Shown piece by piece: positions 1-51,988 of a stretch of 64,000 nt of DNA. The translations under genes and the position numbers were made by a program. This stretch comes from a virus, in IMG/VR virus record IMGVR_UViG_3300045988_144682. One strand, 5' to 3'. Each line of letters begins with the position of its first letter. The stretch's first letter is position 1. The notes below the pieces were generated by a model that was not told the DNA's origin, ran no database searches, and was given only the letters and a program-made list of their open reading frames with translations.

Positions 1-15
1 AAATTAGAATTTTAT
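1..15. repeat. Left arm (window-truncated) of inverted repeat flanking the radical SAM 5' segment
   Basis: AAATTAGAATTTTAT is the exact reverse complement of 190-204. True length unknown because the window starts here. Confidence 0.6.
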
Positions 16-163
16 CATAATTGTGCAAATTGTTGTAATTTTGTTCAAGAACAACGTCATTTCCTAACATTTTGTGGTATGAAGATAGCTTCATACATGC
101 TAAGTTGGGGAATCTATGGTTCTTTCGCCCTATTAAATCGGCATCAACTATCGCAATTTTCAT
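1..163 (-). CDS. Detached, inverted 5' fragment of the radical SAM gene (start + first 54 codons; runs off window edge)
   Basis: ATG at 163 (GGAGG at 180-184 rc, long 16-nt spacing). Translates MKIAIVDADLIGRKNHRFPNLACMKLSSYHKMLGNDVVLEQNYNNLHNYDKILI. The last codons (DKILI) lie in the repeat whose partner is 190-204. Confidence 0.6.
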   Translation of the reverse strand, partial: MKIAIVDADLIGRKNHRFPNLACMKLSSYHKMLGNDVVLEQNYNNLHNYDKILI

Positions 164-189
164 TGTTTTTAGGTAAAATCCTCCACTTC

Positions 190-204
190 ATAAAATTCTA
201 ATTT
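190..204. repeat. Right arm of inverted repeat flanking the radical SAM 5' segment
   Basis: ATAAAATTCTAATTT; encodes (H)KILI in the frame of the downstream ORF. Confidence 0.6.
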
Positions 205-227
205 CTAAGGTTTTTACTGATACAGTA

Positions 228-1142
228 GTGCCAGAAGAAGTTTTGAATATGAAAAATGTGGAATACGGTGGAACAGGATTCTATTATGATAAAGCTCCAA
301 AGCTGCCTGATGACATTGAGCATATTTTCCCTGATTATCATTTATATGATGATTTTGTGAAAGAGCAGATTAAGAAAGGTGTAAAGCCGAAGGATTTAAA
401 GGAATACACCGATGTAAGCGTAGGTTTTACTACAAGAGGTTGTATACGACAATGTAAGTTTTGTGTGAATCAGAATTATAAGAAAGCAAGTGTTCATAGC
501 AGGATTGAAGAATTTTATGATCCGACACGAAAGTATATTTGTTTGCTTGATGACAATATATTCGCTTGCAAAGACTGGAAGCAAGTATTTGATGAACTGA
601 TTGCTACAGGTCACAAATTTTATTTCAAGCAAGGTATGGACGAAAGACTGTTGACAGATGAGAAGTGTGAGTATCTTTTCAATAAGGCAAATTGGTATGG
701 AGATTACACATTCGCATTTGACAATATTAAGGATAGAGAAATCATAGAAAAGAAACTGCAAATGATAAGGGAGCATACGGATAAGCAGTGTAGGTTTTAT
801 GTATTTTGTGGATTTAATCATAATGATCCAGGTATTTATTCAGATGAATTTTGGAAAAATGATATTGCAGATTTGTTTGAGAGAATAAGCATTTTGATGA
901 AATATAAGTGTTTACCATATATTATGCGATACATGGATTACGAGAAATCACCATTCAGAGGAATGTACATAGACATAGCCAGATGGTGTAATCAACCAAG
1001 TTTCTTTAAAAAGAAGACATTCAGAGAATTTTGCATAACGAATGGTAAAGAGTCATCATGTATGAAATACGCAAAATATTTTGAACAGCAATGCCCCGAT
1101 ATTGCAGAGAAATATTATGATTTAAGGTTTACAAATAAATGA
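228..1142 (+). CDS. Radical SAM domain protein, 3' body (no convincing own start; frame open from 177)
   Basis: CX3CX2C cluster motif in GFTTRGCIRQCKFCV. The in-frame upstream stretch KILISKVFTDTVVPEE has no ATG or RBS. The ORF-track start at 228 is GTG. Confidence 0.8.
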   Translation: MPEEVLNMKNVEYGGTGFYYDKAPKLPDDIEHIFPDYHLYDDFVKEQIKKGVKPKDLKEYTDVSVGFTTRGCIRQCKFCVNQNYKKASVHSRIEEFYDPTRKYICLLDDNIFACKDWKQVFDELIATGHKFYFKQGMDERLLTDEKCEYLFNKANWYGDYTFAFDNIKDREIIEKKLQMIREHTDKQCRFYVFCGFNHNDPGIYSDEFWKNDIADLFERISILMKYKCLPYIMRYMDYEKSPFRGMYIDIARWCNQPSFFKKKTFREFCITNGKESSCMKYAKYFEQQCPDIAEKYYDLRFTNK

Positions 1143-1198
1143 AAAATAAATTGTTTTTGTTTTTTAATAAACAAGCGGTAATAATGGAGGAAACGCAA

Positions 1199-1378
1199 AT
1201 GGTTCAAATGACAGGTGATAGAGTCAAGCGTGTGGCTCTTGAAACTATTGAATCCGAAATACCAGATGTTGACTATGGCTGCGACTACGAAAAAGATGTT
1301 GCTTTGGCTTTTATGCATAGAGTTGGAGGTATTGTTACTTTAGCCAATAGGTTAGCGGAAGAATGTGCTGATGGATAA
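1199..1378 (+). CDS. Hypothetical small protein
   Basis: GGAGG 8 nt upstream of ATG 1199; ORF track 1139..1378 in the same frame. Confidence 0.5.
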   Translation: MVQMTGDRVKRVALETIESEIPDVDYGCDYEKDVALAFMHRVGGIVTLANRLAEECADG

Positions 1379-1380
1379 AT

Positions 1381-1869
1381 ATGAAGACAGATAAAAGAAA
1401 GGAAATTACAAAAATTCTGTCTCTATCAATTCAAAAGCACATAAATCCACGCAATGACTCTAGGATATATTGGTCAAGAGAAGTCACGTTTGACTACAGA
1501 ACCAAGAATGCCAAAAGAGTTGATTATATGAGATTTAAGCCAGTAAATAACACGGTTGGAGGAATCGAAAAGGGAGATTTTTACTGTTATGAGGTCAAGT
1601 CTTCCGTAGCAGATTTCCATTCTAAAAATGGACATAACTTCATCGGAGATTGGAATTACTACGTGATGCCAAAAGAAGTATTCGATGAGGTCAAAAAAGA
1701 GATTCCGTATGGTGTTGGTGTATTAGTTCCCAGTGGTCGTTGCCACTCCGGGAGCTGGTACGACTTGAAATCCATAAAGAAAGCTAAAAGAATGAACAGA
1801 GAAAAGCCTATTTCAGAAATGCTGCTGATGATGTTTAGGTCGGCAGCAAGGGATAGGAATGTAGAGTAG
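1381..1869 (+). CDS. PD-(D/E)xK nuclease-like protein (MmcB-like)
   Basis: VDYM...YEVKSSVADF...YYVMPKEVF resembles the D...E-x-K core of MmcB-type nucleases. Confidence 0.55.
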   Translation: MKTDKRKEITKILSLSIQKHINPRNDSRIYWSREVTFDYRTKNAKRVDYMRFKPVNNTVGGIEKGDFYCYEVKSSVADFHSKNGHNFIGDWNYYVMPKEVFDEVKKEIPYGVGVLVPSGRCHSGSWYDLKSIKKAKRMNREKPISEMLLMMFRSAARDRNVE

Positions 1870-1878
1870 GAGAAGAAA

Positions 1879-2763
1879 ATGAAGAAAAAGATGATGGTGG
1901 GAATTTTTGCCATACTTTTATGTTTTTCTTTGGTTGGTTGTAAGGCAGGAGAAAGTAAATCTAAATATCCATATGTTACAGTAAAAAGAACAATGTGGAG
2001 AAATGATAATACAGATATAGATATTGGTGGTGAATATGAGCTTAATGATTTTAATAAAGAAACCACTGAAAATGGCTGTACCGTAACACTCAATTTTGAT
2101 TTAAAGAGTAAGAAAAAGAATAAATCTACATCTGAGACAACCAAAAAAGAAAATGATACTGTGCAAAAATCCAATTCACAATTCAAATTGGATGTTGAGC
2201 CAGTTCTACAATTACCAGAACTTCCTACAGGTTGCGAAATTACTTCACTTGCGACTGTACTCAATTACTATGGATATGATATTAGTAAAACTCAGTTAGC
2301 AGATGAATACCTGGAATGTGGCGAAGTTGGAGATACAGATCCGAATGAGAAATTTATAGGATCACCATATGATATTCATTCGTGTGGTTGTTTCTCTAAT
2401 GTGATTGCAGATGCAGCGAAGAGTTTCAGTGAGAAGAACGGCTGTAATTTCAAAGTATACAATTTATACGGATTGTCATTAGATGATTTATACAAATATG
2501 TAGAAGATGGCAAGCCGGTAGTAATTTGGTCAACTATTGACCTGAAAGAAACATACAGAAATATCACATGGAACGTTGATGGTAAAGAAATAGCATGGCG
2601 TGCAAATGAACATTGTATGGTGCTAATTGGATATGACAAGGACAATAATACTTGTATTGTTTCTGATCCGTTACAAGGTATTAAGGAATATCCGAGAGAT
2701 TTATTTAATCAGAGATATGAGGAACTTGGTAAACAAGCTGTAGTAGTAGAAAAAGGTATTTAA
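1879..2763 (+). CDS. Lipoprotein with C39-like cysteine peptidase domain
   Basis: Lipobox signal MKKKMMVGIFAILLCFSLVGC; LPTGCEITSLATVLNYYGY plus downstream EHCMVLIGYD is consistent with a Cys/His papain-like C39-type fold. Confidence 0.65.
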   Translation: MKKKMMVGIFAILLCFSLVGCKAGESKSKYPYVTVKRTMWRNDNTDIDIGGEYELNDFNKETTENGCTVTLNFDLKSKKKNKSTSETTKKENDTVQKSNSQFKLDVEPVLQLPELPTGCEITSLATVLNYYGYDISKTQLADEYLECGEVGDTDPNEKFIGSPYDIHSCGCFSNVIADAAKSFSEKNGCNFKVYNLYGLSLDDLYKYVEDGKPVVIWSTIDLKETYRNITWNVDGKEIAWRANEHCMVLIGYDKDNNTCIVSDPLQGIKEYPRDLFNQRYEELGKQAVVVEKGI

Positions 2764-2764
2764 T

Positions 2765-2920
2765 ATGTGGGATTTTGAAAAAGATTCAGACAAAACATGT
2801 TTCGACCATCTGGGTGATTATATCCCAGAAAGTATTGCAAACGAAGCGAAAAGAGAACTCAGAAGACGAGGATATTCTGAAGAGAAAATCCGTGAAGAAG
2901 AGTGGAAACGGACAAAATAA
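2765..2920 (+). CDS. Hypothetical 51-aa protein
   Basis: ATG overlaps the upstream stop (TAATATG); open for 51 codons, followed by a small hairpin at 2921-2938. Confidence 0.4.
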   Translation: MWDFEKDSDKTCFDHLGDYIPESIANEAKRELRRRGYSEEKIREEEWKRTK

Positions 2921-3053
2921 CTATTTTATTTGAAATAGCTTATTTAGCCGTTTTCAGACAAAATTATGAGTAAATAATAGAAGTCTTAGTTTCTGGAATT
3001 ACCTATATTACGGTGTTCCAGTATCATAGATAAAATAGTTATTAGGAGTAGTA

Positions 3054-3806
3054 ATGGAAGTCAACGAAATATATAAAGGTGACTGCCTGGAATTGATGAA
3101 AGATATTCCAACGAATAGTGTTGATATGATTTTATGTGATCTTCCGTTTGGGCAGACTGCCCGGAATAAATGGGATTCTGTTATACCGTTTGAACCATTA
3201 TGGCAGCAGTATAACAGAATTATTAAAGATAACGGTGCAATCGTACTATTCGCAAACGGAATGTTCACGGCTGACTTAATGCAAAGTAATAGAAAAATGT
3301 GGCGGTACAATCTTGTGTGGGAGAAAACACAACCGACAGGATTTTTGAATGCTAAGAAAATGCCACTTAGGGCGCATGAGGATATTTGCGTATTTTATAA
3401 GAAATTACCTACATACAATCCTCAGAAAACGACTGGACATATAAGAAAAGTAAGCAAAGCGGAACATAAGCAGAATTGTAAAGAGACTACGGATTATGAG
3501 AAATATGGACTGACTACATATGACAGTACAGAAAGATATCCTAGATCCGTGATTAAGTTCTCAAAAGACATTCAGAAATCAGCCATTCATCCGACACAAA
3601 AACCCGTTGGATTATTGGAGTATCTTATCAAGACTTATACAAATGAAGGTGAACTGGTACTTGATAATTGTGTTGGAAGTGGTAGTACATGTGTAGCTGC
3701 ACTTAATACAAACAGGCAGTATATTGGAATTGAAATGGACGATAAATATTTTGACATTGCTCAGAATAGGATTCGTGATTTCAAAGAATGCTTAAAACAA
3801 GCATAA
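3054..3806 (+). CDS. DNA N4/N6 methyltransferase (beta-class order)
   Basis: Catalytic DLPFG (DPPY-like) lies N-terminal to HPTQKP and the SAM motif DNCVGSGST. RBS AGGAG upstream. Confidence 0.85.
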   Translation: MEVNEIYKGDCLELMKDIPTNSVDMILCDLPFGQTARNKWDSVIPFEPLWQQYNRIIKDNGAIVLFANGMFTADLMQSNRKMWRYNLVWEKTQPTGFLNAKKMPLRAHEDICVFYKKLPTYNPQKTTGHIRKVSKAEHKQNCKETTDYEKYGLTTYDSTERYPRSVIKFSKDIQKSAIHPTQKPVGLLEYLIKTYTNEGELVLDNCVGSGSTCVAALNTNRQYIGIEMDDKYFDIAQNRIRDFKECLKQA

Positions 3807-3822
3807 ATAAAGGAGAAACAAT

Positions 3823-4134
3823 ATGTATGATGATATTGTGAAGTATATTCCATATGGTAGAGAGAACGCCATTAGTAGAGATGATTTGGCAATCAAGGTT
3901 GGATGTTCTGACAGAATTATGCGAGATTTAATAAGTAAGGCAAGAAAGAAAACTGTCATCATCAATATTCAGAATGGTAGTGGATATTACAGACCAACAG
4001 AAGATGATATGGAAGATGTATTGAAATACAAGCATCAGGAAGAAAATCGTGCTACAGAGGTGTTTGGCAATCTGCAGCCGGTAAGAGAATTCATCAGGAA
4101 ATATGGTAAGGGTAAGAAAAATGCGAAAGTGTGA
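3823..4134 (+). CDS. Hypothetical protein
   Basis: AAGGAG RBS; 103-aa ORF in the operon. Confidence 0.6.
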   Translation: MYDDIVKYIPYGRENAISRDDLAIKVGCSDRIMRDLISKARKKTVIINIQNGSGYYRPTEDDMEDVLKYKHQEENRATEVFGNLQPVREFIRKYGKGKKNAKV

Positions 4135-4378
4135 TAGCTGTCTTTATGGTGAAAAACTCTACGATGGTACATTGATTTGCCAACACATCGTATCTATGCA
4201 AGGAAAAGAAACCACACAAGACTATGTGATTTGTAATAGGGTTGCTAAGTGTGATTTCTTTTTAGAAACAAATGTTAAATGTAGTGACTGCCAGGGTAGT
4301 TGCTATGCAATTCAAAGAAGACTTAATTGTAAGAAAATGGAGGTTTTGAAGAATGAAAAGAGTATTGATTGTCATTGA
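4103..4378 (+). CDS. Cys-rich hypothetical protein
   Basis: Several CxxC-like pairs; start uncertain (4103 or 4121). Confidence 0.45.
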   Translation: MVRVRKMRKCDSCLYGEKLYDGTLICQHIVSMQGKETTQDYVICNRVAKCDFFLETNVKCSDCQGSCYAIQRRLNCKKMEVLKNEKSIDCH

Positions 4379-4898
4379 TATGCAGGAGGACTTTGTGCGT
4401 GGTTCTCTGGGATCAAAAGATGCAGAAGCCATTGTAAGTAAAGTTAAAGCTAAAATTACCGAATACATGGAGCGTGGCGATAAGATCATCTTCACTAGAG
4501 ATACACACAGAGAAAATTATTTGGAAACACTGGAAGGTAAGAATCTGCCAGTTGAACATTGTATCTATGGCACAGAGGGATGGCGAATTATTCCAGAGCT
4601 AGTTGATGACTGCAAAGAATATCCAGACTGCTCATTTATTGACAAAGTAACATTTGGGTATGAGAACTGGAAAGATATTTTCGGCACTGTAGATGAATAC
4701 GGTATTGAGTTGGTGGGACTTTGCACTGATATTTGTGTAGTGTCAAATGCACTTGCATTACGAATGTTCTACCCGTCCTGGAACATTTCAGTTGATGAAA
4801 GTTGTTGTGCTGGTGTAACTACTAAGAAGCATAAAGCAGCACTTGAAGTCATGAAATCATGCCAGATTGAGGTTACAAACAGCCAGAAAACTAAATAA
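4353..4898 (+). CDS. pncA: Isochorismatase-family hydrolase, nicotinamidase-like
   Basis: VLIVIDMQEDF (Asp), TRDTHRENY (metal D/H), IDKVTF (Lys) and GLCTDICV (Cys) match the PncA-type triad and metal site. Confidence 0.7.
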   Translation: MKRVLIVIDMQEDFVRGSLGSKDAEAIVSKVKAKITEYMERGDKIIFTRDTHRENYLETLEGKNLPVEHCIYGTEGWRIIPELVDDCKEYPDCSFIDKVTFGYENWKDIFGTVDEYGIELVGLCTDICVVSNALALRMFYPSWNISVDESCCAGVTTKKHKAALEVMKSCQIEVTNSQKTK

Positions 4899-4900
4899 AA

Positions 4901-4909
4901 CTATGTTTT
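4901..4909. repeat. Left arm of short inverted repeat (C5-MTase switch)
   Basis: CTATGTTTT is the reverse complement of AAAACATAG at 5068-5076. Confidence 0.5.
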
Positions 4910-5009
4910 TATGTTGTCGGTCAAGTTCTATCGTGAAAGTCTCAAAACCCTTGATTTCAAAGGCTTTTGCGATACTACGTGTACCGCTAAATAAATCTAA
5001 ACACTTCAT
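4902..5009 (-). CDS. Detached, inverted 5' fragment of the C5 cytosine methyltransferase gene (RBS + first 36 codons)
   Basis: GAAAGGAAG RBS about 10 nt before ATG 5009. Encodes MKCLDLFSGTRSIAKAFEIKGFETFTIELDRQHKNI, i.e. SAM-binding motif I (FxGxG-like LFSGTRS). Confidence 0.7.
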
Positions 5010-5033
5010 TATAGTTTTACTTCCTTTCTCAAA

Positions 5034-5603
5034 TTGCGTATATTACGTGATTACAAACGACCAAATCAAAACATAGATTGGTATGCAGATATCATGGAAG
5101 TAACGGCAAAAGACATTATTGAGAGATTCGGTAGACCGGATGTAATCTGGGCAAGTCCACCATGTACAAGTTATTCTATCGCTGCAATATCACATCACAG
5201 AAAGAAGAATGTTGAAACCGGCAGTCTTGATCCTGTAAGTGATTTTGCAAAGCTATCTGATGAGCTTGTAAAACATACATTAGAGCTTATCAAAGAATTA
5301 AAGCCTAAGTATTGGTTCATCGAAAATCCTAGAGGTGGCATGAGAAAAATGGATTTCATGCAAGGATTGCCACGATACACAGTTACATACTGCCAGTATG
5401 GTGATACACGAATGAAACCTACGGACATATGGACTAACCACCCGAATCCTCAATTTAAGCCAATGTGCCATAATGGTGATCCATGTCATGAGAAAGCACC
5501 TAGAGGGAGTAAAACAGGCACACAAGGTTTAAAGGGTGCTGTACAGAGAAGTGTTATACCAGAGGAATTATGCTTGCATATTGCAGATATATGTAGACTG
5601 TAG
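5034..5603 (+). CDS. C5 cytosine DNA methyltransferase, 3' body lacking motif I
   Basis: WASPPCTSYS (motif IV PC), IENPRGG (motif VI ENV-like), YCQYGDTRMKPT. No FxGxG motif and no RBS; the ORF-track start is TTG. Confidence 0.75.
   Translation: MRILRDYKRPNQNIDWYADIMEVTAKDIIERFGRPDVIWASPPCTSYSIAAISHHRKKNVETGSLDPVSDFAKLSDELVKHTLELIKELKPKYWFIENPRGGMRKMDFMQGLPRYTVTYCQYGDTRMKPTDIWTNHPNPQFKPMCHNGDPCHEKAPRGSKTGTQGLKGAVQRSVIPEELCLHIADICRL
5068..5076. repeat. Right arm of short inverted repeat (C5-MTase switch)
   Basis: AAAACATAG; codons N-I-D of the plus-strand ORF. Confidence 0.5.
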
Positions 5604-5606
5604 ATT

Positions 5607-6116
5607 GTGATTGTAAATGGAAACGAGGTAATTGAGATGGACATGTTAGATATTTGTATTAAACAAGGCTATGTACCGCCAGATTGTAAATTAGATGGTG
5701 CAATAGCTTTTATGATTGTCAGAGATGGAAAAAATCCGTGTGATGGATGCCATGCTGACTGCATACATAAAAAATCGTCATATTGTAGAGAAGTTTTTTA
5801 TGATGATAAATCAAAAAGAGTACAGCGTAGAAAGAAATTGGGAACAAATTCAGAACCAACTATTTATGTAGACACGGCACGTAGTGGTACAACAATTACG
5901 GCTATTTTACCAAATTCTGAGATAGGATATATAAGGCATGTAACAGATGGGATTGAATGTACAGCAGATTATATTGAGAATATGTGCATAAAATATGGCG
6001 CAAAACAAGTTATTATTGATACAAGTGGATTTGGAATAGCTGTATGTGATTCGTTGTTTAACAAAAAATTGCCCTGGTTAGATATAGTTCCTGTTCATTG
6101 TATTTCAGATAGATAA
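5607..6116 (+). CDS. Hypothetical protein
   Basis: 169-aa ORF; start ambiguous (5607 GTG or 5637 ATG). Confidence 0.55.
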   Translation: MIVNGNEVIEMDMLDICIKQGYVPPDCKLDGAIAFMIVRDGKNPCDGCHADCIHKKSSYCREVFYDDKSKRVQRRKKLGTNSEPTIYVDTARSGTTITAILPNSEIGYIRHVTDGIECTADYIENMCIKYGAKQVIIDTSGFGIAVCDSLFNKKLPWLDIVPVHCISDR

Positions 6117-8385: not shown

Positions 8386-9690
8386 ATGTTTGAATGGAAT
8401 CCAGTTTTTAATTTTGCAATGAACATCAAACATAATTATTTGAAAAAGTTCGGCAAAGTTGAATACAGAAAATATGAGATTGAAGAGAATGATACTACCA
8501 AAACGGTATCATGCTTAGAATACTGGATTAAAACACTTAACGATGAAACAGCCAAAGAAAAAATCAAATATCTTGAAATAAATCAGGAGGGGGATCTTAT
8601 CCTTATCCGATATGGTAAATTCAGTTCAGCCGGTGATGGTCAATACGAAATTACTGTTGAAGACCTCTGGAATGCAGATAATGGATTTTTCTTGGAATGC
8701 CGAAGTGTGGTAATCAATCTCAAAACAGAGGAAATTGTCATTGCACCATTTAAGAAGTTCCGAAATTTGAATGAATGTCCCGAAAATGATATAAAAGTCG
8801 TGACAGAAGAAATCAAGAATGCAAAAACTGTTGAAATCACAAATAAACTTGATGGAAGTATGCAGTGTGTACGTTGGTATAACGGCGAAATCTTCATGTC
8901 TGGCAGTCAGGCGATTAACCCTGATATGTCGTGGAGATTAGCCGATGGAATTTTACGACTAACAGACAATAATAAATGCATGGCAAAAGAAAATCCAAGT
9001 CTTACATTTATCTACGAATATATTTCATTGCCAGATGCCCACGTTGTCAAATACACGAAAGAGCAAGAAGGATTGTATCTGATTGGTATTAGAGATGTGA
9101 ATACCGGCAGACAGTATTCTTATAAAGAAGTTGCGGAGTATGCTGCTAAATATCATGTGCCGATGACAGAGATTTTTGACAAAACTTTTGATGAAGTATT
9201 GGAAGAAGTCAAGACAATCAAGTCGGATGAAATGGAAGGATTTGTAATTAACATTGATGGTCACATGATTAAAGTGAAAGGCGATGATTATACACAGATT
9301 CATAGAGTATTATCAAAAATTTCTTCAATCAATCTGATTATTCAGAGTGTGGCAGAAGATAAGGTCGATGATTTATACAGCAAAGTTCCGGCAGCATACA
9401 AACCAAGAGTACGGATAGTTGAGAAAATTGTTCGAGGATATATTTCAGACATGGAATCAGAAACTTCTAAATGGTACTCAAAAGCTCCAAAATCTGACAG
9501 AAAGACCTTTATGATTTGGGTACATGAAAATGTCCCACCGAAATTTAAGTCATATGTCAGAAACAAGTATTTTGGTATAGAAAACAATTATATCAAATAT
9601 GGAAGTGATAAATGCCCAGGTTATAGAAAACTTAACGAAATGGGTGTAACAGACTATAAGAAAATTTTTGAAGAGAGTGAGGAAGAGTAA
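8386..9690 (+). CDS. RNA ligase (T4 Rnl1-like nucleotidyltransferase)
   Basis: Motif I NKLDGS (KxDG), motif IV MEGFVIN, motif V IKVKG. Confidence 0.75.
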   Translation: MFEWNPVFNFAMNIKHNYLKKFGKVEYRKYEIEENDTTKTVSCLEYWIKTLNDETAKEKIKYLEINQEGDLILIRYGKFSSAGDGQYEITVEDLWNADNGFFLECRSVVINLKTEEIVIAPFKKFRNLNECPENDIKVVTEEIKNAKTVEITNKLDGSMQCVRWYNGEIFMSGSQAINPDMSWRLADGILRLTDNNKCMAKENPSLTFIYEYISLPDAHVVKYTKEQEGLYLIGIRDVNTGRQYSYKEVAEYAAKYHVPMTEIFDKTFDEVLEEVKTIKSDEMEGFVINIDGHMIKVKGDDYTQIHRVLSKISSINLIIQSVAEDKVDDLYSKVPAAYKPRVRIVEKIVRGYISDMESETSKWYSKAPKSDRKTFMIWVHENVPPKFKSYVRNKYFGIENNYIKYGSDKCPGYRKLNEMGVTDYKKIFEESEEE

Positions 9691-10640
9691 TGGAAAAACC
9701 AACTTTCGTGATGATGGTCGGTTTGCCTGGAAGTGGAAAATCTACTTTGGCGAAAGATATAAAGGACACGTATCATGGTACAATTTTTTCGTCAGATAGT
9801 ATCAGAGAAGAACTTACTGGTTCAGAAGAGTGTATGGATCAGGATAAAGAAGTATTTCAAACGCTTCATAGAAGAATTAAGGAATATCTGATAGAGCATC
9901 AGGGGACAGACGGTTGTGCAATTTATGATGCATGTAATATCAGTTATAAAAAGAGAATGGCATTCTTGCGTGAACTTAAAAAGATTGATTGCAGAAAAGT
10001 TTGCTATTTTGTATGGACTCCATATAAAATGTGTCTTGAACAGAACAAAAAGAGAGACAGAGTTGTACCGGAATATGCGATTGCACGAATGTACAAAAAC
10101 ATTTACATACCACAGTATTATGAAGGTTGGGATTCTATTATTTTTAATTTAAAACACGCAATAATAAATGGAAACAGCTTAACAAAATTGTTCTATGAGA
10201 TGCCAAATGGACTTTGTAGTATTGACCATGACAATCCACATCATCAGTTATCCATCGGAAATCATTGCATCGCATGTTATCTGAACGCTCTCACGATGAC
10301 AATGGATTCGCCGGATTTCAATTTATGTACGGCAGCATTGCTTCATGATATTGGAAAGTCTTTTACAAAAGGGTATAAAGACAGTAAAGGCAATTCTTGT
10401 GAATACGCACATTACTACCAGCATCACCTTGTATCTGCATATGATGCGGTTAGATATCTCAGATTTGTAGAAGAAAATGATAGGCTTGAAATTCTTGCAT
10501 TGATCCAGTGGCATATGTTCCCGTACTTCTGGGAGAAAGATAATAACACAAAGATGCAGAGCAAATACAAGAAATTATGGGGAGATGAGCTGTACGACAA
10601 AATCATGCTTCTCCATAAAGCAGATATGGAGGCACACTGA
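9690..10640 (+). CDS. P-loop polynucleotide-kinase-like domain fused to an HD phosphohydrolase domain
   Basis: Walker A GLPGSGKST; C-terminal LLHDIGK HD motif and downstream His residues. Confidence 0.8.
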   Translation: MEKPTFVMMVGLPGSGKSTLAKDIKDTYHGTIFSSDSIREELTGSEECMDQDKEVFQTLHRRIKEYLIEHQGTDGCAIYDACNISYKKRMAFLRELKKIDCRKVCYFVWTPYKMCLEQNKKRDRVVPEYAIARMYKNIYIPQYYEGWDSIIFNLKHAIINGNSLTKLFYEMPNGLCSIDHDNPHHQLSIGNHCIACYLNALTMTMDSPDFNLCTAALLHDIGKSFTKGYKDSKGNSCEYAHYYQHHLVSAYDAVRYLRFVEENDRLEILALIQWHMFPYFWEKDNNTKMQSKYKKLWGDELYDKIMLLHKADMEAH

Positions 10641-10855
10641 TGAAAAGTAAGAAACAGTTTGCCCGTGAAACAAATGGAGAAGTATACACAAGAAATGAAT
10701 TTGCGAAACTTGTAGACGCAGGAGCGTTTATTCCATATGACGGGATTGGATATTTCCATGATGGTACAAATAGAACAGATATAAGTGTATGGAATAATAG
10801 TCTTACAGCAAAAGATGTTGAAAAATACCCCTATGTATGTTGGTACAACAGATAA
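10640..10855 (+). CDS. Hypothetical protein
   Basis: 71-aa ORF; ATGA overlap with the upstream gene. Confidence 0.55.
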   Translation: MKSKKQFARETNGEVYTRNEFAKLVDAGAFIPYDGIGYFHDGTNRTDISVWNNSLTAKDVEKYPYVCWYNR

Positions 10856-11298
10856 ATAAAATTCATGTTTTGTCTATTATGAAATCCTATCCGTTGGTCG
10901 AAACTGAGTATTTGTATTCCATTTTTGAAATATTTATATCTAGTTTTTCCCTGTAAAGTATTCAGTGGTAGCAAAACTGCAAATGGTTTATTGAGATTAT
11001 ATAATCTTTCGAGAATTTGGTCTTTGATATTGAATGGTGGGTTTGAGATTATCACATCATAGTCATCAGGTTCATATAAGAAGAAATCTTTCCCTTCATC
11101 TATATGGGATCTGATGACATCAAATCCATTTTCCCTAAATGTTTGATAGAACGAAGACCATTCAGCATCAAACGGACACCATATTCTATAACTTTTCGGT
11201 ATATATTTTACGATTGGTTCAACCGCATAATATGGTGTATATAATTCCTGGTGTTCAGGCGTTTTACTACTGGTTAAATAACCAATGTTGTTTGCCAA
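10831..11298 (-). CDS. N6-adenine-type methyltransferase, flipped orientation with aberrant C-terminus
   Basis: IISNPPF catalytic motif; AAGGAG RBS plus TTG start at 11298. It is the only full-length minus-strand gene in the plus-strand arm. It ends 9 codons after crossing the repeat. Confidence 0.8.
   Translation of the reverse strand: MANNIGYLTSSKTPEHQELYTPYYAVEPIVKYIPKSYRIWCPFDAEWSSFYQTFRENGFDVIRSHIDEGKDFFLYEPDDYDVIISNPPFNIKDQILERLYNLNKPFAVLLPLNTLQGKTRYKYFKNGIQILSFDQRIGFHNRQNMNFIYLLYQHT
10860..10871. repeat. Left arm of 12-bp perfect inverted repeat (N6-MTase switch)
   Basis: AATTCATGTTTT; reverse complement of 11318-11329. Confidence 0.7.
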
Positions 11299-11317
11299 TT
11301 TATCACACTCCTTCGTT

Positions 11318-11329
11318 AAAACATGAATT
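11318..11329. repeat. Right arm of 12-bp perfect inverted repeat (N6-MTase switch)
   Basis: AAAACATGAATT. Confidence 0.7.
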
Positions 11330-11439
11330 CTACAATAGAGGGAAGTCCATTTGCAACTGCATATTTTTGTAAAGATTTTCTACCAAACGACTTAATTGTT
11401 GAGAAACTAGAAAAATATGAAAAAGGATTATTGAATTGA
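11330..11439 (+). CDS. Orphan 3' end of the N6-MTase gene (36 codons, no start of its own)
   Basis: The frame entering from the right repeat arm stays open: STIEGSPFATAYFCKDFLPNDLIVEKLEKYEKGLLN*. It stops 13 nt before the next ATG. Confidence 0.55.
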
Positions 11440-11452
11440 TTGGAGAAATTAT

Positions 11453-12094
11453 ATGAAAGTGATTTTTCTTGATGTTGACGGTGTGTTGAACTCAGAAAAA
11501 GATTTGTTAGAAGCAAAAGGAAAAAGTGAGCTGTTTGACAGACCGTTGGCATTATTAAAAGAGTTAGTCGAATCAACCAAAGCAAAAATAGTTGTATCAT
11601 CAACATGGCGAATTGGTTGTTCAAAAAGTGGTCGTAATTCGTGGTATGGAGAGGGAATCTTCAAAACACTTACAGATAGATTGGCAGAATATCAGATGGA
11701 AGTATATGATATTACACCAGTCATAAATAAGCCGGGAGTACAGCGTGGAGATGAGATAAGAGCGTGGCTTGAAAATGCAAAAGAAGAAATTGATGCATTT
11801 GTTATTTTAGATGACGATGCAGATATGTGTGAATTTACAGGAACGAATCTTGTACAGACTTCCATGAAAACTGGGCTACTGGAATATCATGTAGAAATTG
11901 CTAAAAGTATACTGAATGGCGAAAATATCACACATGATGTTGTCCTTGATGCAGTCCGTAAAGTGTGGGACAAATTACCTGAATTACGGTTTGGTCAGCT
12001 TATTGTAAATGTTTTGGGTTCAGATCCATTTTATGAATTAGACAAAAACGTAGTAACAAAAATGAGAAAATACGAAAGGAAAATAGGTGAATGA
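11453..12094 (+). CDS. HAD-superfamily phosphatase-like protein (type seen in RNA-repair loci)
   Basis: N-terminal FLDVDGVLN (DxD nucleophile motif); later ILDDD. Confidence 0.7.
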   Translation: MKVIFLDVDGVLNSEKDLLEAKGKSELFDRPLALLKELVESTKAKIVVSSTWRIGCSKSGRNSWYGEGIFKTLTDRLAEYQMEVYDITPVINKPGVQRGDEIRAWLENAKEEIDAFVILDDDADMCEFTGTNLVQTSMKTGLLEYHVEIAKSILNGENITHDVVLDAVRKVWDKLPELRFGQLIVNVLGSDPFYELDKNVVTKMRKYERKIGE

Positions 12095-22601: not shown

Positions 22602-22806
22602 AATCTAAATCATGAGCCTCTTTAATCGAGGAATTCAACGATTTATGATAGCAACAACAAGTTCCAAACTAAATAAAATTCTGATTTTATTTAGACTACT
22701 AATCGTCTGAAGCAAGCAAATATTGCTTAAAACAGAGGATAACGATTTTTACGAAAAACAGAAAAATCATGTTTGCGAAAGGATATATAGTATTTTTGTT
22801 TTACGT

Positions 22807-22944: not shown

Positions 22945-23283
22945 ATGCGAAAAAAGAATTTCAAAGGGCGATGTGAAAAAATCACAGTCACAAAATCAAA
23001 ATCAATCTGTAAAACCTACGATGATCTACAAAGAAGCTATCTCGAAAAATTAGAAGCAAATTCCGACATTCAAGAAATCCGTATGAATATCGTTTTAGAC
23101 AGCTTGCCAGATTATATGTCAGACTTTGTTTGTGTTAAGAATGATGGTGGTTTAATGGTGCGAGAATGCGTATATCGGAAATTTCTCACTAAACCAATGA
23201 CAGTAAAGTTATTGGACGATTCAAGGAACTATTGGCGAAATCATGGTGTAGAAGATTGGGGGTTAGTTATAGATGCAGAATAA
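22945..23283 (+). CDS. TnsA-endonuclease-like small protein
   Basis: GGAAGGAG RBS. YMSDFVCV...VRECVYRK...SRNYWRNHGVEDWGLVIDAE resembles the TnsA N-terminal restriction-like fold. Catalytic Lys position unclear. Confidence 0.5.
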   Translation: MRKKNFKGRCEKITVTKSKSICKTYDDLQRSYLEKLEANSDIQEIRMNIVLDSLPDYMSDFVCVKNDGGLMVRECVYRKFLTKPMTVKLLDDSRNYWRNHGVEDWGLVIDAE

Positions 23284-25099
23284 TCTTATCAAAATTCAAG
23301 ATGGCACGATTTACCGTATATTACAAGAACGTGACTCAGAATGGCTTGTAATTGATTGTATTAAGCGTACTATGCCGAAATGGATAGAAAGTTTGGCTGA
23401 ATTTGAAAGCGTGCCTGAAAGCGTTTTATGGGTGACTACTGGCATTTATCCGACTGACACAAACACTTTATCAACCAAAGAGAAGAAGTATATGAATGAG
23501 CATTACAGCTTGTTTGCTAGTGTTCTGGGCGTTATTGATGATGAGAAAACGAGAAGCTATATTATCCGTGAGATTGCTGAATTATATAAAGTTACTAAGC
23601 AGACAATACGCAACAATTTATGTTTATATTTAGTTTATCAAGATATTACAGTCCTGCTGCCACACAAAAAAGAAAAACGAAACTTGACCAATGATGAAAA
23701 AAATATGAGGTGGGCATTAAACAAATATTACTACACCACAAAGAAACACAGTATTTCCGATGTTTATACAATGATGCTGAAAGAGAAATACTGTGATGAA
23801 ACTGGTCATCTCAAAGAAGATCATCCTTCTATTCATCAATTCCGCTATTACTTTCAGAAGACCAAGAAGCTGCAAAATTTATATATCAGTCGTGGCGGTT
23901 TAAAGGATTATCAGAAAAATCATAGACCGTTGCTTGGTGATGGTGTACAGGAATTTGCCCCAAATGTAGGTTTTGGCATGTTGGATTCTACAATTTGCGA
24001 TATCTACCTTGTGAATGATGCAAGGGAAGTTGTAGGAAGACCGATATTGACGGCTTGTGTAGATGGGTATAGTGGTATGTGTTTAGGTTATTCGCTTGGT
24101 TGGAAAGGTGGAATATATAGTGTTAAGGGACTAATGCTTAATATCGTTGCAGATAAAAAGGAACACTGTAAAAAATTTGGTATTGATATTGCTGATAATG
24201 TGTGGGATTGCCACCAAATGCCAGGGGTAATGATAACAGATAAAGGATCAGAATATATATCTGAAAACTTTGAACAAATCACAGAACTGGGAATAAGGTT
24301 GATTGATTTACCATCGTACCGACCAGAACTAAAAGGATCAGTCGAAAAATTCTTTGACCTTATACAGAATTCTTTCAAAACCGTGTTAAAAGGAAAAGGT
24401 GTAATAGAGCCGGATTTTCAAGAAAGGGGCGCACACGACTATCGAAAAGATGCTTGTATCACATTGGAAATATTCGAAAAAGTCTTGTTACATTGCATCA
24501 TTTATTATAATAGTGGACGCATACTGGAAAATTACCCATTCACTGAAGAGATGCTTTCCGCTAACATAAAACCATTTGCTTGTGAAGTTTGGAATTATGG
24601 CAGAAACCGTAATAATGCAAACTTGATAGATGTATCTGCAGAGCAAGTTATTATGACACTGCTGCCTAGATGCATCGGCAAATTTGCCCGAAACGGCTTA
24701 AAGGTGAACGGATTACGATATAAGCACCCTAACTATACAGAAATGTATCTGAAAGGTGGGGAGGTTACTGTTGCTTATAATCCGGATTCTGTTTCTGATG
24801 TTTGGCTTATTGATAATGGTGAATATGTAAAATTTGAACTGATTGAAAGTCGATATGAACACATGAATGTGGCGAATGTTGCCTCAATAAACGATGTGAA
24901 AAAAGAAGTTATCAAACAAGCGGAAAATGAAAACAAGCAAGCAAAAATAAATTTGCTAAAAACGATTGAAGTCATAACGGCTGGATCAGTGCCAAAATCT
25001 GTCCCTATAAAGAAAATACGTGAAAACCGTACAAAGGAAGAAACTCGTACACATATTGATTTTACGAAGGGAGTAAAGAAATATGCTACAAGAAAATAA
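23273..25099 (+). CDS. tnsB: DDE transposase, TnsB/MuA family
   Basis: rve-like core with MLDSTICDIYL (D), MITDKGSEY (D), RPELKGSVEKFF (E); long C-terminal domain. Confidence 0.8.
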   Translation: MQNNLIKIQDGTIYRILQERDSEWLVIDCIKRTMPKWIESLAEFESVPESVLWVTTGIYPTDTNTLSTKEKKYMNEHYSLFASVLGVIDDEKTRSYIIREIAELYKVTKQTIRNNLCLYLVYQDITVLLPHKKEKRNLTNDEKNMRWALNKYYYTTKKHSISDVYTMMLKEKYCDETGHLKEDHPSIHQFRYYFQKTKKLQNLYISRGGLKDYQKNHRPLLGDGVQEFAPNVGFGMLDSTICDIYLVNDAREVVGRPILTACVDGYSGMCLGYSLGWKGGIYSVKGLMLNIVADKKEHCKKFGIDIADNVWDCHQMPGVMITDKGSEYISENFEQITELGIRLIDLPSYRPELKGSVEKFFDLIQNSFKTVLKGKGVIEPDFQERGAHDYRKDACITLEIFEKVLLHCIIYYNSGRILENYPFTEEMLSANIKPFACEVWNYGRNRNNANLIDVSAEQVIMTLLPRCIGKFARNGLKVNGLRYKHPNYTEMYLKGGEVTVAYNPDSVSDVWLIDNGEYVKFELIESRYEHMNVANVASINDVKKEVIKQAENENKQAKINLLKTIEVITAGSVPKSVPIKKIRENRTKEETRTHIDFTKGVKKYATRK

Positions 25100-26333
25100 G
25101 ATTATCGAATTATTACCACAAGTGTTATCGGGAGATCGTTTAATTGAAGAACTTGGGTATCTTCCAGCGTATAATGAAACAATAATAGAACAAAGTCAGG
25201 CAAGCAGATTACTGGCATTGTCGGATATATATAGGGTGTATGTGCCATCTGAAATGAGTATTGAAATATATAATAAATTATATTTGGCACTATTACTATC
25301 TATAAAAAAGAAATTCACGGCAGCAGCAGTAAAACAAAGATATGAGAATGCAAAAATGATAAAACGAATGGATTCTGTGGGAATAATCGGTGGTTCGGAT
25401 TCATTCACTATTATTGGTTCATCTGGTATTGGAAAGAGTAGTGCTATAGAAAAATCCATTGGACTCTTAACGGAAAACGCCATTATACAGGATGATGAAC
25501 TGATAGGGAATGTTATTCCTTGCCTGGTTGTACAGTGTCCTTTTGACAGCTCAGTAAAAAGTTTGCTTCTGGAAATTCTCAGAAAAACAGATGAGGTGCT
25601 TGAAACGAATTATTATGAGTCAGCTAAAAAATCAAGATATACGACAACAGATGTTTTAATTGGTTCGGTCAGTACGATTGCATTAAATCACATAGGACTT
25701 TTGATCGTGGACGAAATACAAAATGTGGTTAATTCTAAGAATGGGAAAAGCCTCATTGGATCACTAACACAGTTAATCAATAATAGCGGTATATCTATCT
25801 GCATGGTGGGAACACCAGAAAGTGTGCCATTCTTTGAACAGGCTATGCAGTTGGCACGTAGAAGTGTAGGGTTAAGATATGAAGCAATGGAATATGGCGA
25901 TTACTTCAAATTTTTATGTCAAGTATTATGGCAGTATCAATATGTAAAAGAGTGCGTAGAACTTACAGAAGAAGTCACGTACTGGCTGTATGAGCATTGT
26001 GGGGGTGTTGTTTCTATTCTTATAACATTGCTGCATGATAGTCAGGAAATGGCAATTATGAGTGGCTATGACACCTTAGATTTGACGATATTGGAAGAAA
26101 CATATAAAAGCCGGTTATCTATGTTACACGGATATATTAAGCCAAATATGGGAGCAAAAGCCAGCCAGAAAAGAAAGAAAAGGATGCCAGAAATCAGCAG
26201 TGAAATTCTTTGCATCGAAAACGAGTCCCTAATTTCAGACCTAAGTACAATCGTAAAACAGGGGGCAATGGATATTGATGAAATGATAAATAGAATGAAT
26301 GTGGCATTTATGGTAGAGGTGATTGCATGTTAG
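25083..26333 (+). CDS. tnsC: AAA+ ATPase, TnsC/TniB family
   Basis: Walker A GSSGIGKSS and Walker B LLIVDEIQN; positioned between transposase and TniQ. Confidence 0.8.
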   Translation: MLQENKIIELLPQVLSGDRLIEELGYLPAYNETIIEQSQASRLLALSDIYRVYVPSEMSIEIYNKLYLALLLSIKKKFTAAAVKQRYENAKMIKRMDSVGIIGGSDSFTIIGSSGIGKSSAIEKSIGLLTENAIIQDDELIGNVIPCLVVQCPFDSSVKSLLLEILRKTDEVLETNYYESAKKSRYTTTDVLIGSVSTIALNHIGLLIVDEIQNVVNSKNGKSLIGSLTQLINNSGISICMVGTPESVPFFEQAMQLARRSVGLRYEAMEYGDYFKFLCQVLWQYQYVKECVELTEEVTYWLYEHCGGVVSILITLLHDSQEMAIMSGYDTLDLTILEETYKSRLSMLHGYIKPNMGAKASQKRKKRMPEISSEILCIENESLISDLSTIVKQGAMDIDEMINRMNVAFMVEVIAC

Positions 26334-27700
26334 GGATTGTACCAAAGTTATACGAAGATGAGCTTTTTTATTCATGGCTGTGCCGGTATTATGTGGCAAA
26401 AGGTTTTACGTCCAATTCTCATTTTATAGAGGAAGTAACCGGGAACAACAGATTGTATTTGAATAAAGAGTTTGTGCCACCATTCAAAGCAGAGTTTCGC
26501 CATGACATTGAAAAAATATTTGGTTTTGAGAATGTTATAAGAAATCATACTCTATACGGACAAGAAGCACGTTTCTATACTGAGGAAGAAATAAATAATG
26601 TGTGGGAGCTTTTTCAGACAGATTCCTTTGATATTAGAACATTATTTAGAATGCAGAAATCAAAAGAGGGGCATTCTCTTAGTTATTGCCCTTTGTGTGT
26701 TAAAGAAGAACGGGAATCTATCGGTGAATGCTACTGGCATAAATCCCACCAAATACAAGGTATAGATATCTGTTTGAAACACAGGTGTAAGCTAAAAGAA
26801 TCCGAAATAAGAGTTGGTTCAAAACATAATGATATGATATCTCCGGCAGAATGGTGGTGTAATGATTCGGAAATAGAAATGGTAGAAAACACGCATTGCT
26901 TGAAATATTATAATTATGTGTGGGAAATTGCCAATGCCCCTTGTAACGGGATGGATGCAAAAAAGATTATAGCTCTGTTATACAAGAAGCTGAAAGAAAA
27001 AGGCTACCGGACACTAGGACAACGGCTTTTAGGGATTATGTCAGAAGATATGGAGCAGTATTATGAGGAAATGGGCGTATCTTATGAAATGTGTTATTCA
27101 ACATTACAGACAATATTTGCAAAGTATAATTATCCGTTTATTGCCATTATCCAAACAGCGTACTTTTTAGGTGTGACAGCAGAAGAGTTACTGAATCCAG
27201 TTGTTAGTGATTTTGATATTGCAGATGAGGAATGTAGCCACTATGTCAGTGACCGTAATAATACAAATATCAATCGTGATCTGATGGATCGAAATTATCT
27301 GAAATCTGTTAAAAGAGAATGTGAGTTGATATATAGTGGTCATTATCATGCAAAAGGAAGACCGATGAAAGTGTCTGCACTTAAAGTATGCAAGAGAGTT
27401 GGAATTACACATACTTTGATTAAGTTTATGCCACTTTGCAAGGCTTGTATTGATGAATATGCAGAAACGGATGACGAATATCATGCGAGGATTATTGTGT
27501 GGGCTTATAGAAAATTGAAAGCGGAAAAAACGGACGGTGAAATAATTCGTGTGTCAGAAATTCATAAACTTACAAGTGAATGGAAGGAAAATATCATAAG
27601 AGCATTGCCATATATGGCGAAATTTGCGGATCAAGAAATGATAAATGAGATAGATGCATTAGCGAGAGAGAAGCATTGGCATAGAAATTTAGTGGACTAA
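26327..27700 (+). CDS. tniQ: TniQ/TnsD-family target selector
   Basis: N-terminal LYEDELFYSWLCRY; zinc module CPLC...HKSH...CLKHRC. Confidence 0.75.
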   Translation: MLGIVPKLYEDELFYSWLCRYYVAKGFTSNSHFIEEVTGNNRLYLNKEFVPPFKAEFRHDIEKIFGFENVIRNHTLYGQEARFYTEEEINNVWELFQTDSFDIRTLFRMQKSKEGHSLSYCPLCVKEERESIGECYWHKSHQIQGIDICLKHRCKLKESEIRVGSKHNDMISPAEWWCNDSEIEMVENTHCLKYYNYVWEIANAPCNGMDAKKIIALLYKKLKEKGYRTLGQRLLGIMSEDMEQYYEEMGVSYEMCYSTLQTIFAKYNYPFIAIIQTAYFLGVTAEELLNPVVSDFDIADEECSHYVSDRNNTNINRDLMDRNYLKSVKRECELIYSGHYHAKGRPMKVSALKVCKRVGITHTLIKFMPLCKACIDEYAETDDEYHARIIVWAYRKLKAEKTDGEIIRVSEIHKLTSEWKENIIRALPYMAKFADQEMINEIDALAREKHWHRNLVD

Positions 27701-32155: not shown

Positions 32156-32428
32156 CTATAATAAAGAACTCATTTCGATAATGCAGCGTTTCATTTTTTC
32201 CATTTCTGTCATTTCCCGAATGATAAATCTTGTATGACCGTCTTCTTGCCAAATATTTGTACATATCATATCGGCATAGTCAACGCCACCTATATTAACT
32301 GTTGTTAAATTGTTATCAGACAAAAGTTCCATATTAACCACATCGTCTGTTATATAATTGTTTCCATTCATTGTGGCGTGAATCTCTGTTTTGTCTGCGA
32401 GGATAATATTGTAAATAGTATTTTCCAT
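32156..32428 (-). CDS. Hypothetical protein
   Basis: GGAGG RBS; the start lies inside the last 95 nt of the RT ORF. Confidence 0.5.
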   Translation of the reverse strand: MENTIYNIILADKTEIHATMNGNNYITDDVVNMELLSDNNLTTVNIGGVDYADMICTNIWQEDGHTRFIIREMTEMEKMKRCIIEMSSLL

Positions 32429-33602: not shown

Positions 33603-33778
33603 TTCATAATCTTTTCTTTCATAATCATATTTATTTATATTTGACGTATATAGCAATCAGTCGTAACGAATTGCATCGTCTTTATCTTTTTGCGTATTAT
33701 ATAACACACGCAAGGACAACTTCTCCTTTCTTCGTTTCCTGTATCTGCATATAGCATAGTTAAACAGGCAGAAGAAAT

Positions 33779-33891
33779 CGGGCGAACACCATTAGAATTA
33801 GAGGCGTTGTTGTTGTTCGCATTACCGTTGTTGTTCACATTAGCGAAGTTAGTCGCACTCCTCACACCACGAAGCCAATAGTTGAAGCGAC
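33779..33891 (-). repeat. DGR template repeat (TR)
   Basis: 113 nt, 99/113 identical to 34671-34783. Asn(AAC)-rich when translated. The ORF-track entry 33635..33865 is just its translation. Confidence 0.9.
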
Positions 33892-51347: not shown

Positions 51348-51375
51348 TAATCTTGCAAATAATAATAGTAATAAA
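51348..51375. repeat. 28-bp inverted repeat, left arm
   Basis: TAATCTTGCAAATAATAATAGTAATAAA; 26/28 complementary to 51961-51988. Confidence 0.85.
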
Positions 51376-51385
51376 CAGATTTTTG

Positions 51386-51394
51386 TGATATAAT
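51386..51394 (+). promoter_or_regulatory. Extended -10 promoter element (TGaTATAAT) for the antisense ORF
   Basis: Same TGa-TAnAAT form as the promoters at 8361 and 14302; about 30 nt before the RBS AAGGAG (51415-51420). Confidence 0.4.
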
Positions 51395-51426
51395 TATAAA
51401 TAATATCAAACAATAAGGAGAAAAAT

Positions 51427-51960: not shown

Positions 51961-51988
51961 ATTATTACCATTATTATTTGCAAGATTA
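51961..51988. repeat. 28-bp inverted repeat, right arm
   Basis: ATTATTACCATTATTATTTGCAAGATTA, starting right after the stop of the 51427 ORF. Confidence 0.85.

Follow-up and report, generated by a model that had tools for sequence, protein, structure and literature searches.

The first 204 nucleotides (nt) of a 64,000-nucleotide stretch of viral DNA, the IMG/VR virus record IMGVR_UViG_3300045988_144682 (the whole stretch is termed the window below), contain the 5' part of a phage gene for a radical S-adenosylmethionine (SAM) protein, whose initial codons lie inverted between two short inverted repeats. The real and recurrent nature of this inversion is well supported: the segment is found both ways round in near-identical phages, so that inversion of the DNA would turn the gene on or off. 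The arrangement is very probably a reversible site-specific inversion switch, or inverton, of the 'partial intergenic' type, which the window carries in its OFF orientation.

The left repeat AAATTAGAATTTTAT (1-15) is the exact reverse complement of the right repeat ATAAAATTCTAATTT (190-204), with a gap of 174 nt between them, and the two sites are situated just upstream of the radical SAM gene and at its codons 50-54, respectively (Table 1). The plus-strand frame as sampled has its earliest start codon at GTG 228, giving an open reading frame (ORF) of 304 amino acids (aa), and the detached fragment on the minus strand reads MKIAIVDADL...NLHNYDKILI; its GGAGG is the complement of 181-185 and is conserved in the cassette. 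The repeat pair, the frame open from 177, the GTG, the 54-codon minus-strand ORF and the C-x3-C-x2-C motif had all been pointed out in a first-pass annotation of the window and are present in the sequence, and the continuous protein of about 366 aa that it expected from inversion of 16-189 was obtained in silico as a single uninterrupted ORF of 366 aa (...NLHNYDKILISKVFTDT...). However, the supposition made there that the window edge cuts the repeat short is wrong. The left flank was taken from IMG/VR contigs 98-99% identical to the window (L001/L012, L002/L013 and L011), with the use of exact-match and protein-guided scans; the left-extending contigs L002 and L011 give exactly 15 bp, and the bases bordering both arms on the inner and outer sides do not pair in them, so that the boundaries of the repeat-bounded segment are set with the extended flank. 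The genes adjoining the locus, from position 1 to ~27.7 kb, are all on the plus strand. Position 1 of the window coincides with the outermost base of the left repeat; were it also the end of a contig, a break in the assembly at this point would be in keeping with a source sample of mixed orientations.

A perfect 15-mer inverted repeat with a spacing of 40-1000 nt was present in 24% of the dinucleotide shuffles of the window, and the 15-mer inverted-repeat seeds numbered 0.31 on average in the shuffles versus 6 in the window itself. Therefore, the repeat alone is weak evidence, and the case is carried by the in-frame join together with the comparative data; what counts is the location of the repeat at precisely the two points that restore the frame.

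Both orientations were found among the relatives of the window, in a comparison of consensus assemblies to which loci were added by a repeat-gap-repeat scan of metagenome contigs and by protein-guided scans. The census of distinct loci comprises eight in the ON orientation (L003, L005, L006, L009, L015, L045, L046 and L047) and eleven in the OFF orientation (the window, L001, L002, L004, L007, L008, L010, L011, L014, L016 and L048). Each of three clades includes both states: in the window-like clade (at least 96% identity), L006 and L009, with 96-98% identity to the window, are ON and seven loci are OFF; in the 87% clade, L003 is ON and L004 is OFF; in the 75% clade (clade D), L015 and L045-L047 are ON and L014 and L016 are OFF. 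In the best pair, L003 (ENA) versus L004 (Logan), the left flanks are 99.3% and the right flanks 98.3% identical, and the 173-nt segments match, at 97.7% identity, only when one of them is reverse-complemented; a common left flank is also seen in L015 and L014. The pairs L003/L004, L015/L014 and L006/window differ only by the flip, that is, the inversion has recurred in nature at identical breakpoints.

The same polymorphism is seen in the protein databases, where some of the closest proteins are of 366 aa and start with MEIAIIDADL..., and others, of 304-325 aa, start at the internal GTG or just ahead of KILISK. Four clusters at 90% protein identity each contain both 366-aa and 297-325-aa gene calls, the short ones being about four times commoner among the listed cluster members. 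The ON copy P0135 (RHO20284.1) is encoded on a 333-kb contig of the cultured isolate Ruminococcus sp. AM18-44, the genome of which is the locus L046 (GCA_003473745.1, contig QUCP01000001.1, about 150-163 kb); therefore, the phage resides as a prophage in gut Clostridia and is open to experiment.

The rebuilt N-terminus is homologous to the N-termini of the full-length relatives, and the view of the first-pass annotation, that one radical SAM gene has its first ~50 codons inverted, is thus supported by homology from residue 1 as well as by the relatives of opposite orientation. PHROG 9298 ('radical SAM domain protein') aligns residues 1-335 of the rebuilt protein with its profile positions 1-296 of 305 (E = 2e-52). 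A large protein database yielded 5615 homologues, and the best 120 of them are nearly all of 362-396 aa and co-linear, with 99-100% query coverage; the length is 362-370 aa in most homologues. In an alignment of 30 homologues the residues R17, F18, P19, N20, L21, M24, K25, S27, K31 and L39, all encoded in the flipped part, are invariant, as are C134, C138 and C141 of the radical SAM motif. The AlphaFold model (mean predicted local distance difference test score, pLDDT, 87; predicted template modelling score, pTM, 0.81) assigns residues 2-55 to an N-terminal alpha/beta domain, in which they make up three strands and one helix, the repeat-encoded KILIS being the strand 51-55. The nearest solved folds in Foldseek were MiaB (7mjw, E = 3e-6) and the B12-dependent CysS (9n1d), at a probability of 1.0 and template modelling (TM) scores of only 0.43-0.47, and the nearest viral models were methylthiotransferase-like and B12-binding-like radical SAM proteins, the TM-scores being about 0.45-0.64 with the solved folds included. 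MiaB, CysS and the viral models have a common layout of an N-terminal Rossmann-like domain followed by the radical SAM barrel, and the partial TIM-barrel fold is assigned both by Foldseek and by the label of PHROG 9298. The modelled likeness to methylthiotransferases (MiaB/MtaB) or to B12-dependent class B enzymes is one of overall layout only, and no membership of either is claimed. Among the GenBank phages, the nearest homologue belongs to Oscillospiraceae phage NatCom_21982 (56% identity); a megablast of window positions 1-6000 against these phages gave no match, and a protein search of them gave only co-linear homologues at no more than 56% identity, none of which was split across strands.

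The repeat is identical in every clade down to 82% protein identity, at a proportion of synonymous differences (pS) in the cassette of up to about 0.5. In clade D the central base is changed in both arms in a matched manner (AAATTAGTATTTTAT / ATAAAATACTAATTT; A>T in the left and T>A in the right arm), with a synonymous ATT>ATA as the result in the coding arm, which is the outcome expected if strand exchange at this base keeps the two arms alike. The non-coding left arm is retained with the gene beside at least six different upstream sequences. The ratio of nonsynonymous to synonymous differences (pN/pS) in the cassette is 0.13-0.29 for OFF-OFF pairs of different clades and 0.19-0.35 for ON-ON pairs, and the cassette ORF is intact in every OFF copy; these values indicate purifying selection on the flipped-out coding segment, even where it was sampled OFF. 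The repeat is absent from the homologues at 63-67% identity, whose genes are co-linear in the ordinary way, which makes the switch a derived trait of a single clade. In the P0015 clade, whose radical SAM protein is 70% identical, a G8 tract at codon ~34 (L020 / L021, ~2480-2500) frameshifts the N-terminus, which would be in frame with G7. The same G8 in two independent assemblies could reflect slipped-strand phase variation or a homopolymer sequencing error; no length variants of the tract were found in IMG/VR.

In the proposed mechanism, a recombinase would exchange the strands within the repeat. In the ON state, the cassette would read rightwards and supply the 366-aa enzyme, with the Rossmann-like domain ahead of the barrel. 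In the OFF state of the window, the start codon and the invariant N-terminal residues would point away, antisense to the plus-strand gene block, leaving the radical SAM body devoid of a ribosome-binding site, a proper start and the invariant residues, so that the gene is expected to be functionally off and to give no functional enzyme. The space ahead of the cassette ATG is 25 nt, with no room for a promoter, and the promoter and terminator scans around the switch gave nothing better than shuffled sequence, so no promoter is claimed in the cassette; the switch probably acts on translation and protein integrity, not on transcription. Its likely purpose would be the bet-hedging of phage nucleic-acid modification or anti-defence functions across hosts with differing defence systems.

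Besides this inverton, the window contains at least three others, which affect three DNA methyltransferase genes and are all found in the opposite orientation in relatives. The segment 2916-3043 lies directly upstream of the N6/N4 DNA methyltransferase gene 3054-3806 (PF01555); an alignment at the inner edge gives 11 matches in 14 positions between its arms and those of the radical SAM inverton, and it is flipped relative to the window in L001, L003, L005, L006 and L009, with perfectly conserved repeats. When flipped, a putative promoter-like TTGGCT-17 nt-TAAAAT would span the segment and the repeat and face the methyltransferase. The C5 methyltransferase has the same geometry as the radical SAM gene, as the first-pass annotation had held for the methyltransferase cases, with imperfect 22-nt repeats (4898-4919 / 5058-5079) containing a perfect 9-nt core (4901-4909 / 5068-5076); once it is rebuilt, the Pfam match reaches the profile position 1, and the segment is inverted between L045 (10693-10870) and the isolate L046 (10690-10867), the flanks of which are 99.6% identical. 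The last 38 codons of the NPPF-motif methyltransferase are detached, on the plus strand after 11332, and its other, intact orientation occurs in L016 (1159-1631), with a matched change in both repeat arms. All four switches of the window are in a state that disrupts or disconnects the gene. The state of the radical SAM switch agrees with that of 2916-3043 in 9 of 10 genomes, a small and non-independent sample (the flipped 2916-3043 segment in all four ON genomes, the window-type segment in five of the six OFF genomes), and their co-ordinated switching is possible.

The repeat of 15 bp is below the usual length for RecA-dependent recombination and does not allow general recombination to be efficient, so that the involvement of a site-specific recombinase is to be expected. 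The sole recombinase in a scan of about 40 larger ORFs of the window is a Xer-like tyrosine recombinase (55011-56045). It is the most likely candidate, at about even odds, for the invertase, and would serve in trans both the radical SAM inverton and at least three methyltransferase invertons. It is conserved in related IMG/VR contigs at 100%, 78% and 57% identity, including a contig bearing the radical SAM inverton and the samples that yielded the 75% clade. A shared motif, AATWANNATTTTAT, matches with zero mismatches only the four arms of the radical SAM and 2916-3043 invertons; with one mismatch, 13 matches were observed versus 7.5 expected, which is near chance and, therefore, the resemblance of motifs across the invertons is suggestive only. 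In an intergenic gap at 22673-22690, the near-palindrome ATAAAATTCTGATTTTAT consists of two facing copies of the ATAAAAT motif of the invertons' inner edge; it could be a binding site of the recombinase or of a regulator, or a chance occurrence.

Several observations weigh against the switch as set out above. PF04055 was not reported by Pfam for the rebuilt protein, Fer4_12 reached 12 bits against a cut-off of 22, and the NCBIfam and PDB sequence and profile searches returned nothing usable; with these searches below threshold, the protein is thus taken, on its sequence and predicted fold, to be a divergent member of the radical SAM superfamily. The distance from GGAGG to ATG, 14-16 nt, is long for a ribosome-binding site. 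The sequences compared are consensus assemblies, so that reversibility within one population, and its rate, are presumed, and all seven loci that share the upstream gene of the window (the window, L001, L002, L007, L008, L010 and L011) are OFF, so that this lineage could be strongly biased or locked OFF. As to the invertase, the candidate recombinase is 55 kb away from the radical SAM inverton, neither function nor adjacency was found to link it to the invertons, it scores far under the cut-offs of every named NCBIfam Xer or invertase family, and the visible sequence covers 64 kb out of a genome of perhaps about 160 kb. A scan of species-representative genomes also found, in the chromosome of an Anaerobutyricum metagenome-assembled genome (MAG), a repeat pair identical to the clade-D version around an unrelated intergenic segment of 152-160 bp beside mutS2, which fits a host invertase equally well. 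An adjacent 33-nt repeat pair of the MAG has a similar core, and both pairs may delimit invertons of the host that are served by a recombinase of the same class.

The alternative that survives best, although it is rather unlikely, is accordingly that the switch is real and is flipped by a host-encoded global invertase, the phage tyrosine recombinase doing something else. The MAG repeat pairs and the distant, unclassifiable phage recombinase speak for it. However, this recombinase is conserved across related phages, and the MAG locus could itself be phage-derived or mis-binned. Moreover, the genes at 23273-27700 form a Mu-type transposase module and, therefore, integration may not need the tyrosine recombinase, which would be left free for another role; the module itself suggests Mu-like replication or integration, or an embedded transposon.

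It is improbable that the inversion makes a choice of isoforms instead of an ON/OFF decision, with a function of its own for the truncated 304-aa enzyme started at GTG 228 or for the free 54-aa peptide. Both pieces are open in every OFF copy, and OFF predominates in the assemblies (~4:1 among the listed cluster members), but the intact ORFs are equally well explained by a frequent return to ON, GTG 228 has no recognisable ribosome-binding site, the truncated form is deprived of the invariant residues R17-K31 and of three strands of the N-terminal domain, and the 54-aa fragment is antisense to the entire plus-strand gene block.

Still less credible are rare unprogrammed inversions, in which chance recombination at a short repeat would have left the OFF copies as decaying pseudogenes. 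The 15-bp repeat is statistically unremarkable in the AT-rich window, and the uniformly OFF copies of its own lineage would agree with such decay; against it stand both states in three clades among genomes of 97-99% identity with always the same breakpoints, the conserved and co-varying repeat, the purifying selection on the OFF cassettes, the length of the repeat under that usual for RecA-dependent recombination, and at least three further invertons of the same genome that behave alike. An assembly artefact or a mis-join at the repeat, which the start of the window at the exact outer repeat edge might recall, as a contig break at an ambiguous repeat would look, is effectively refuted by the independent assemblies, at least ten showing OFF with continuous flanks on both sides and at least eight (IMG/VR, ENA, Logan and the isolate genome) showing ON. 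Finally, the probability of two divergent genes, with a separate paralogue at the left that begins with the minus-strand fragment, is negligible and nothing was found in its favour: in L002, L011 and L007 the fragment ends straight after the repeat with a TAA, formed by the window base 1 and the two bases before it, base 1 being also part of the stop codon of an upstream plus-strand 211-aa lipoprotein-like gene unrelated to the radical SAM gene, and the divergent paralogue is therefore excluded.

The inverton of the radical SAM gene is set in a region that also includes an RNA-repair set and genes of nucleotide metabolism, and in the relatives the neighbourhood has Macro, Tad8, PTH2, MazG-like and further methyltransferase genes. 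This content appears to fit an anti-defence and modification region and is the basis of the bet-hedging proposal. The inverted repeat at 51348-51988 is not counted as a switch of a gene 5' end, as its inversion extends no ORF; the 177-aa gene inside it encodes a zinc ribbon and a ribosomal L7/L12 C-terminal domain, and one arm lies in the first codons of a 1960-aa tape-measure-like ORF. A diversity-generating retroelement was also observed, with a reverse transcriptase (PF00078) at 32334-33656 on the minus strand and repeats at 33779-33891 and 34671-34783: the 113-nt template repeat adjoins the reverse transcriptase, the 88%-identical variable repeat is at the 3' end of the ORF 34653-35585, and the mismatches are all at template adenines.

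Table 1. Features of the radical SAM switch, the other invertons and associated loci (window coordinates unless another sequence is named)
Feature	Position	Strand	Description
Left inverted repeat IR-L	1..15		AAATTAGAATTTTAT; complete at 15 bp; same in all relatives to the 82%-identity clade
Right inverted repeat IR-R	190..204	+	ATAAAATTCTAATTT; inside the coding sequence; codes for (D)KILI(S), predicted to form a beta-strand in the N-terminal domain
Invertible 174-bp segment	16..189	-	OFF orientation in the window; GGAGG, ATG 163-161 and codons 1-49 of the radical SAM protein
Detached N-terminal coding fragment	2..163	-	54 codons, MKIAIVDADLIGRKNHRFPNLACMKLSSYHKMLGNDVVLEQNYNNLHNYDKILI; ATG at 163, up to the window edge
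Radical SAM gene body	190..1142	+	Residues 50-366; frame open from 177
C-x3-C-x2-C iron-sulfur cluster motif	441..464	+	C134, C138, C141 in the rebuilt protein; invariant across the family
Second inverton	2916..3043		14-bp repeats AATAACTATTTTAT / ATAAAATAGTTATT around a 100-bp intergenic segment
Third inverton, C5 DNA methyltransferase	4857..5603		First ~36 codons (MKCLDLFSG..., motif I) at 4857-5009 (-); body 5034-5603
RNA-repair set	8386-12094		T4-type RNA ligase, AAA_33/HD kinase-phosphatase, HAD_SAK_2 protein; invertible methyltransferase embedded between
Fourth inverton, NPPF-motif methyltransferase	10857..11332		446-bp segment with the ribosome-binding site and most of the gene on the minus strand
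Mu-transposase C-terminal domain protein, 608 aa, then TniB-like and TniQ-like genes	23273-27700		
27-nt (96%) inverted repeat	51348-51374 / 51962-51988		Around a plus-strand 177-aa gene in a minus-strand tail operon
Xer-like tyrosine recombinase, 344 aa	55011..56045	-	PF00589, 64 bits, and an N-terminal SAM-like domain
Repeat pair of the Anaerobutyricum MAG (CAKREJ010000040.1)	L049 3663-3999		Beside mutS2; clade-D-version 15-bp pair, to 19 nt at 95%

In phages, programmed inversion is classically associated with tail fibres and host range: the G segment of phage Mu and the C segment of P1 are inverted by the serine invertases Gin and Cin at sites of 26-34 bp with an enhancer, swapping the tail-fibre C-termini and thereby the host range. 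The radical SAM element is similar to them as a phage-borne invertible segment with short inverted repeats, one of which is in coding sequence, and the Mu and P1 segments likewise generate phage subpopulations; however, what flips in the present case is the 5' end of an enzyme gene, more than one locus takes part, and a tyrosine recombinase is the only one seen. The Mu and P1 systems are cited in PMC9881135. RecV of Clostridioides difficile acts on cwpV, flgB and cmrRST, mostly through switches in the 5' untranslated region or the promoter of surface and motility genes. Common to both are the Firmicute setting, the short inverted repeats and one recombinase, as proposed for the phage, for several dispersed ON/OFF invertons, whereas the targets in the phage are the coding 5' ends and a promoter of DNA-modification genes. 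The flg switch of C. difficile has been described (PMC13464465).

The epigenetic invertons of Type I restriction-modification hsdS genes shuffle the target-recognition domains and so alter the specificity (PMC7672463); there, too, an inversion varies the DNA-modification capacity within a clonal population, but in the present case whole enzymes are turned on or off, and the carrier is a phage, not the host. In the Ureaplasma MBA and UU172 loci, the inversion re-joins a 5' end to alternative partners for the antigenic variation of surface proteins (PMC3047005), and thus the gene 5' end, there a promoter with the N-terminus, is moved relative to the downstream coding sequence as in the phage, where, however, no alternative partner exists. 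The gene-altering programmed inversions and 'partial intergenic' invertons of bacteria (Milman et al. 2023, PMC9881135; Chanin et al., bioRxiv 10.1101/2023.03.11.532203) have one short repeat inside and the other outside the coding sequence, alter the encoded product and are polymorphic in orientation, and the radical SAM element conforms to the structural definition of an inverton and of this class. These surveys deal with chromosomes and lay emphasis on domain swaps (shufflon-like, specificity subunits, tail fibres) or within-gene recoding, while the phage element has no alternative cassette and detaches the start and 49 codons of an enzyme gene; a text search of both papers found no 'radical SAM' or equivalent case. 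A shufflon or domain-swapping inversion was rejected because there is no alternative cassette, neither side holding a paralogous body or N-terminus. The full-text literature searches gave no precedent for invertons on phage radical SAM or methyltransferase genes, which is not proof of absence. What is new is a gene-altering inversion on enzyme genes in an anti-defence/DNA-modification region of a phage.

A wider interpretation, which is held tentatively, is that of a phage-borne 'phasevarion' of a temperate phage of gut Clostridia, where one recombinase would toggle at least four dispersed invertons (the radical SAM, C5, N6/N4 promoter and NPPF-motif switches) for bet-hedging. The match of the radical SAM state with that of the neighbouring methyltransferase promoter in nine of the ten genomes is a hint of it, and the G8 tract of the sister clade suggests an independent selection for switching. 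If this is true, a lysogen or a burst would release virions with up to 16 modification or anti-defence states, hedging against hosts of two kinds, those restricting unmodified and those restricting modified DNA, and the role of the radical SAM enzyme would be that of a new nucleic-acid modifier, costly or double-edged. Gene callers give 297-325 aa versus 366 aa for the protein and miss the detached N-termini, so the phage catalogues under-count intact enzymes. The cultured lysogen Ruminococcus sp. AM18-44 (RHO20284.1) makes the hypothesis directly testable. Here inversion is proposed to act at several loci of a single genome as a switch for the enzymes of a DNA-modification/anti-defence region; should such switching be confirmed, phages, like their hosts, would use phase variation to diversify their epigenetic or counter-defence states, which would have a bearing on the persistence of gut phages among hosts with varied restriction systems.

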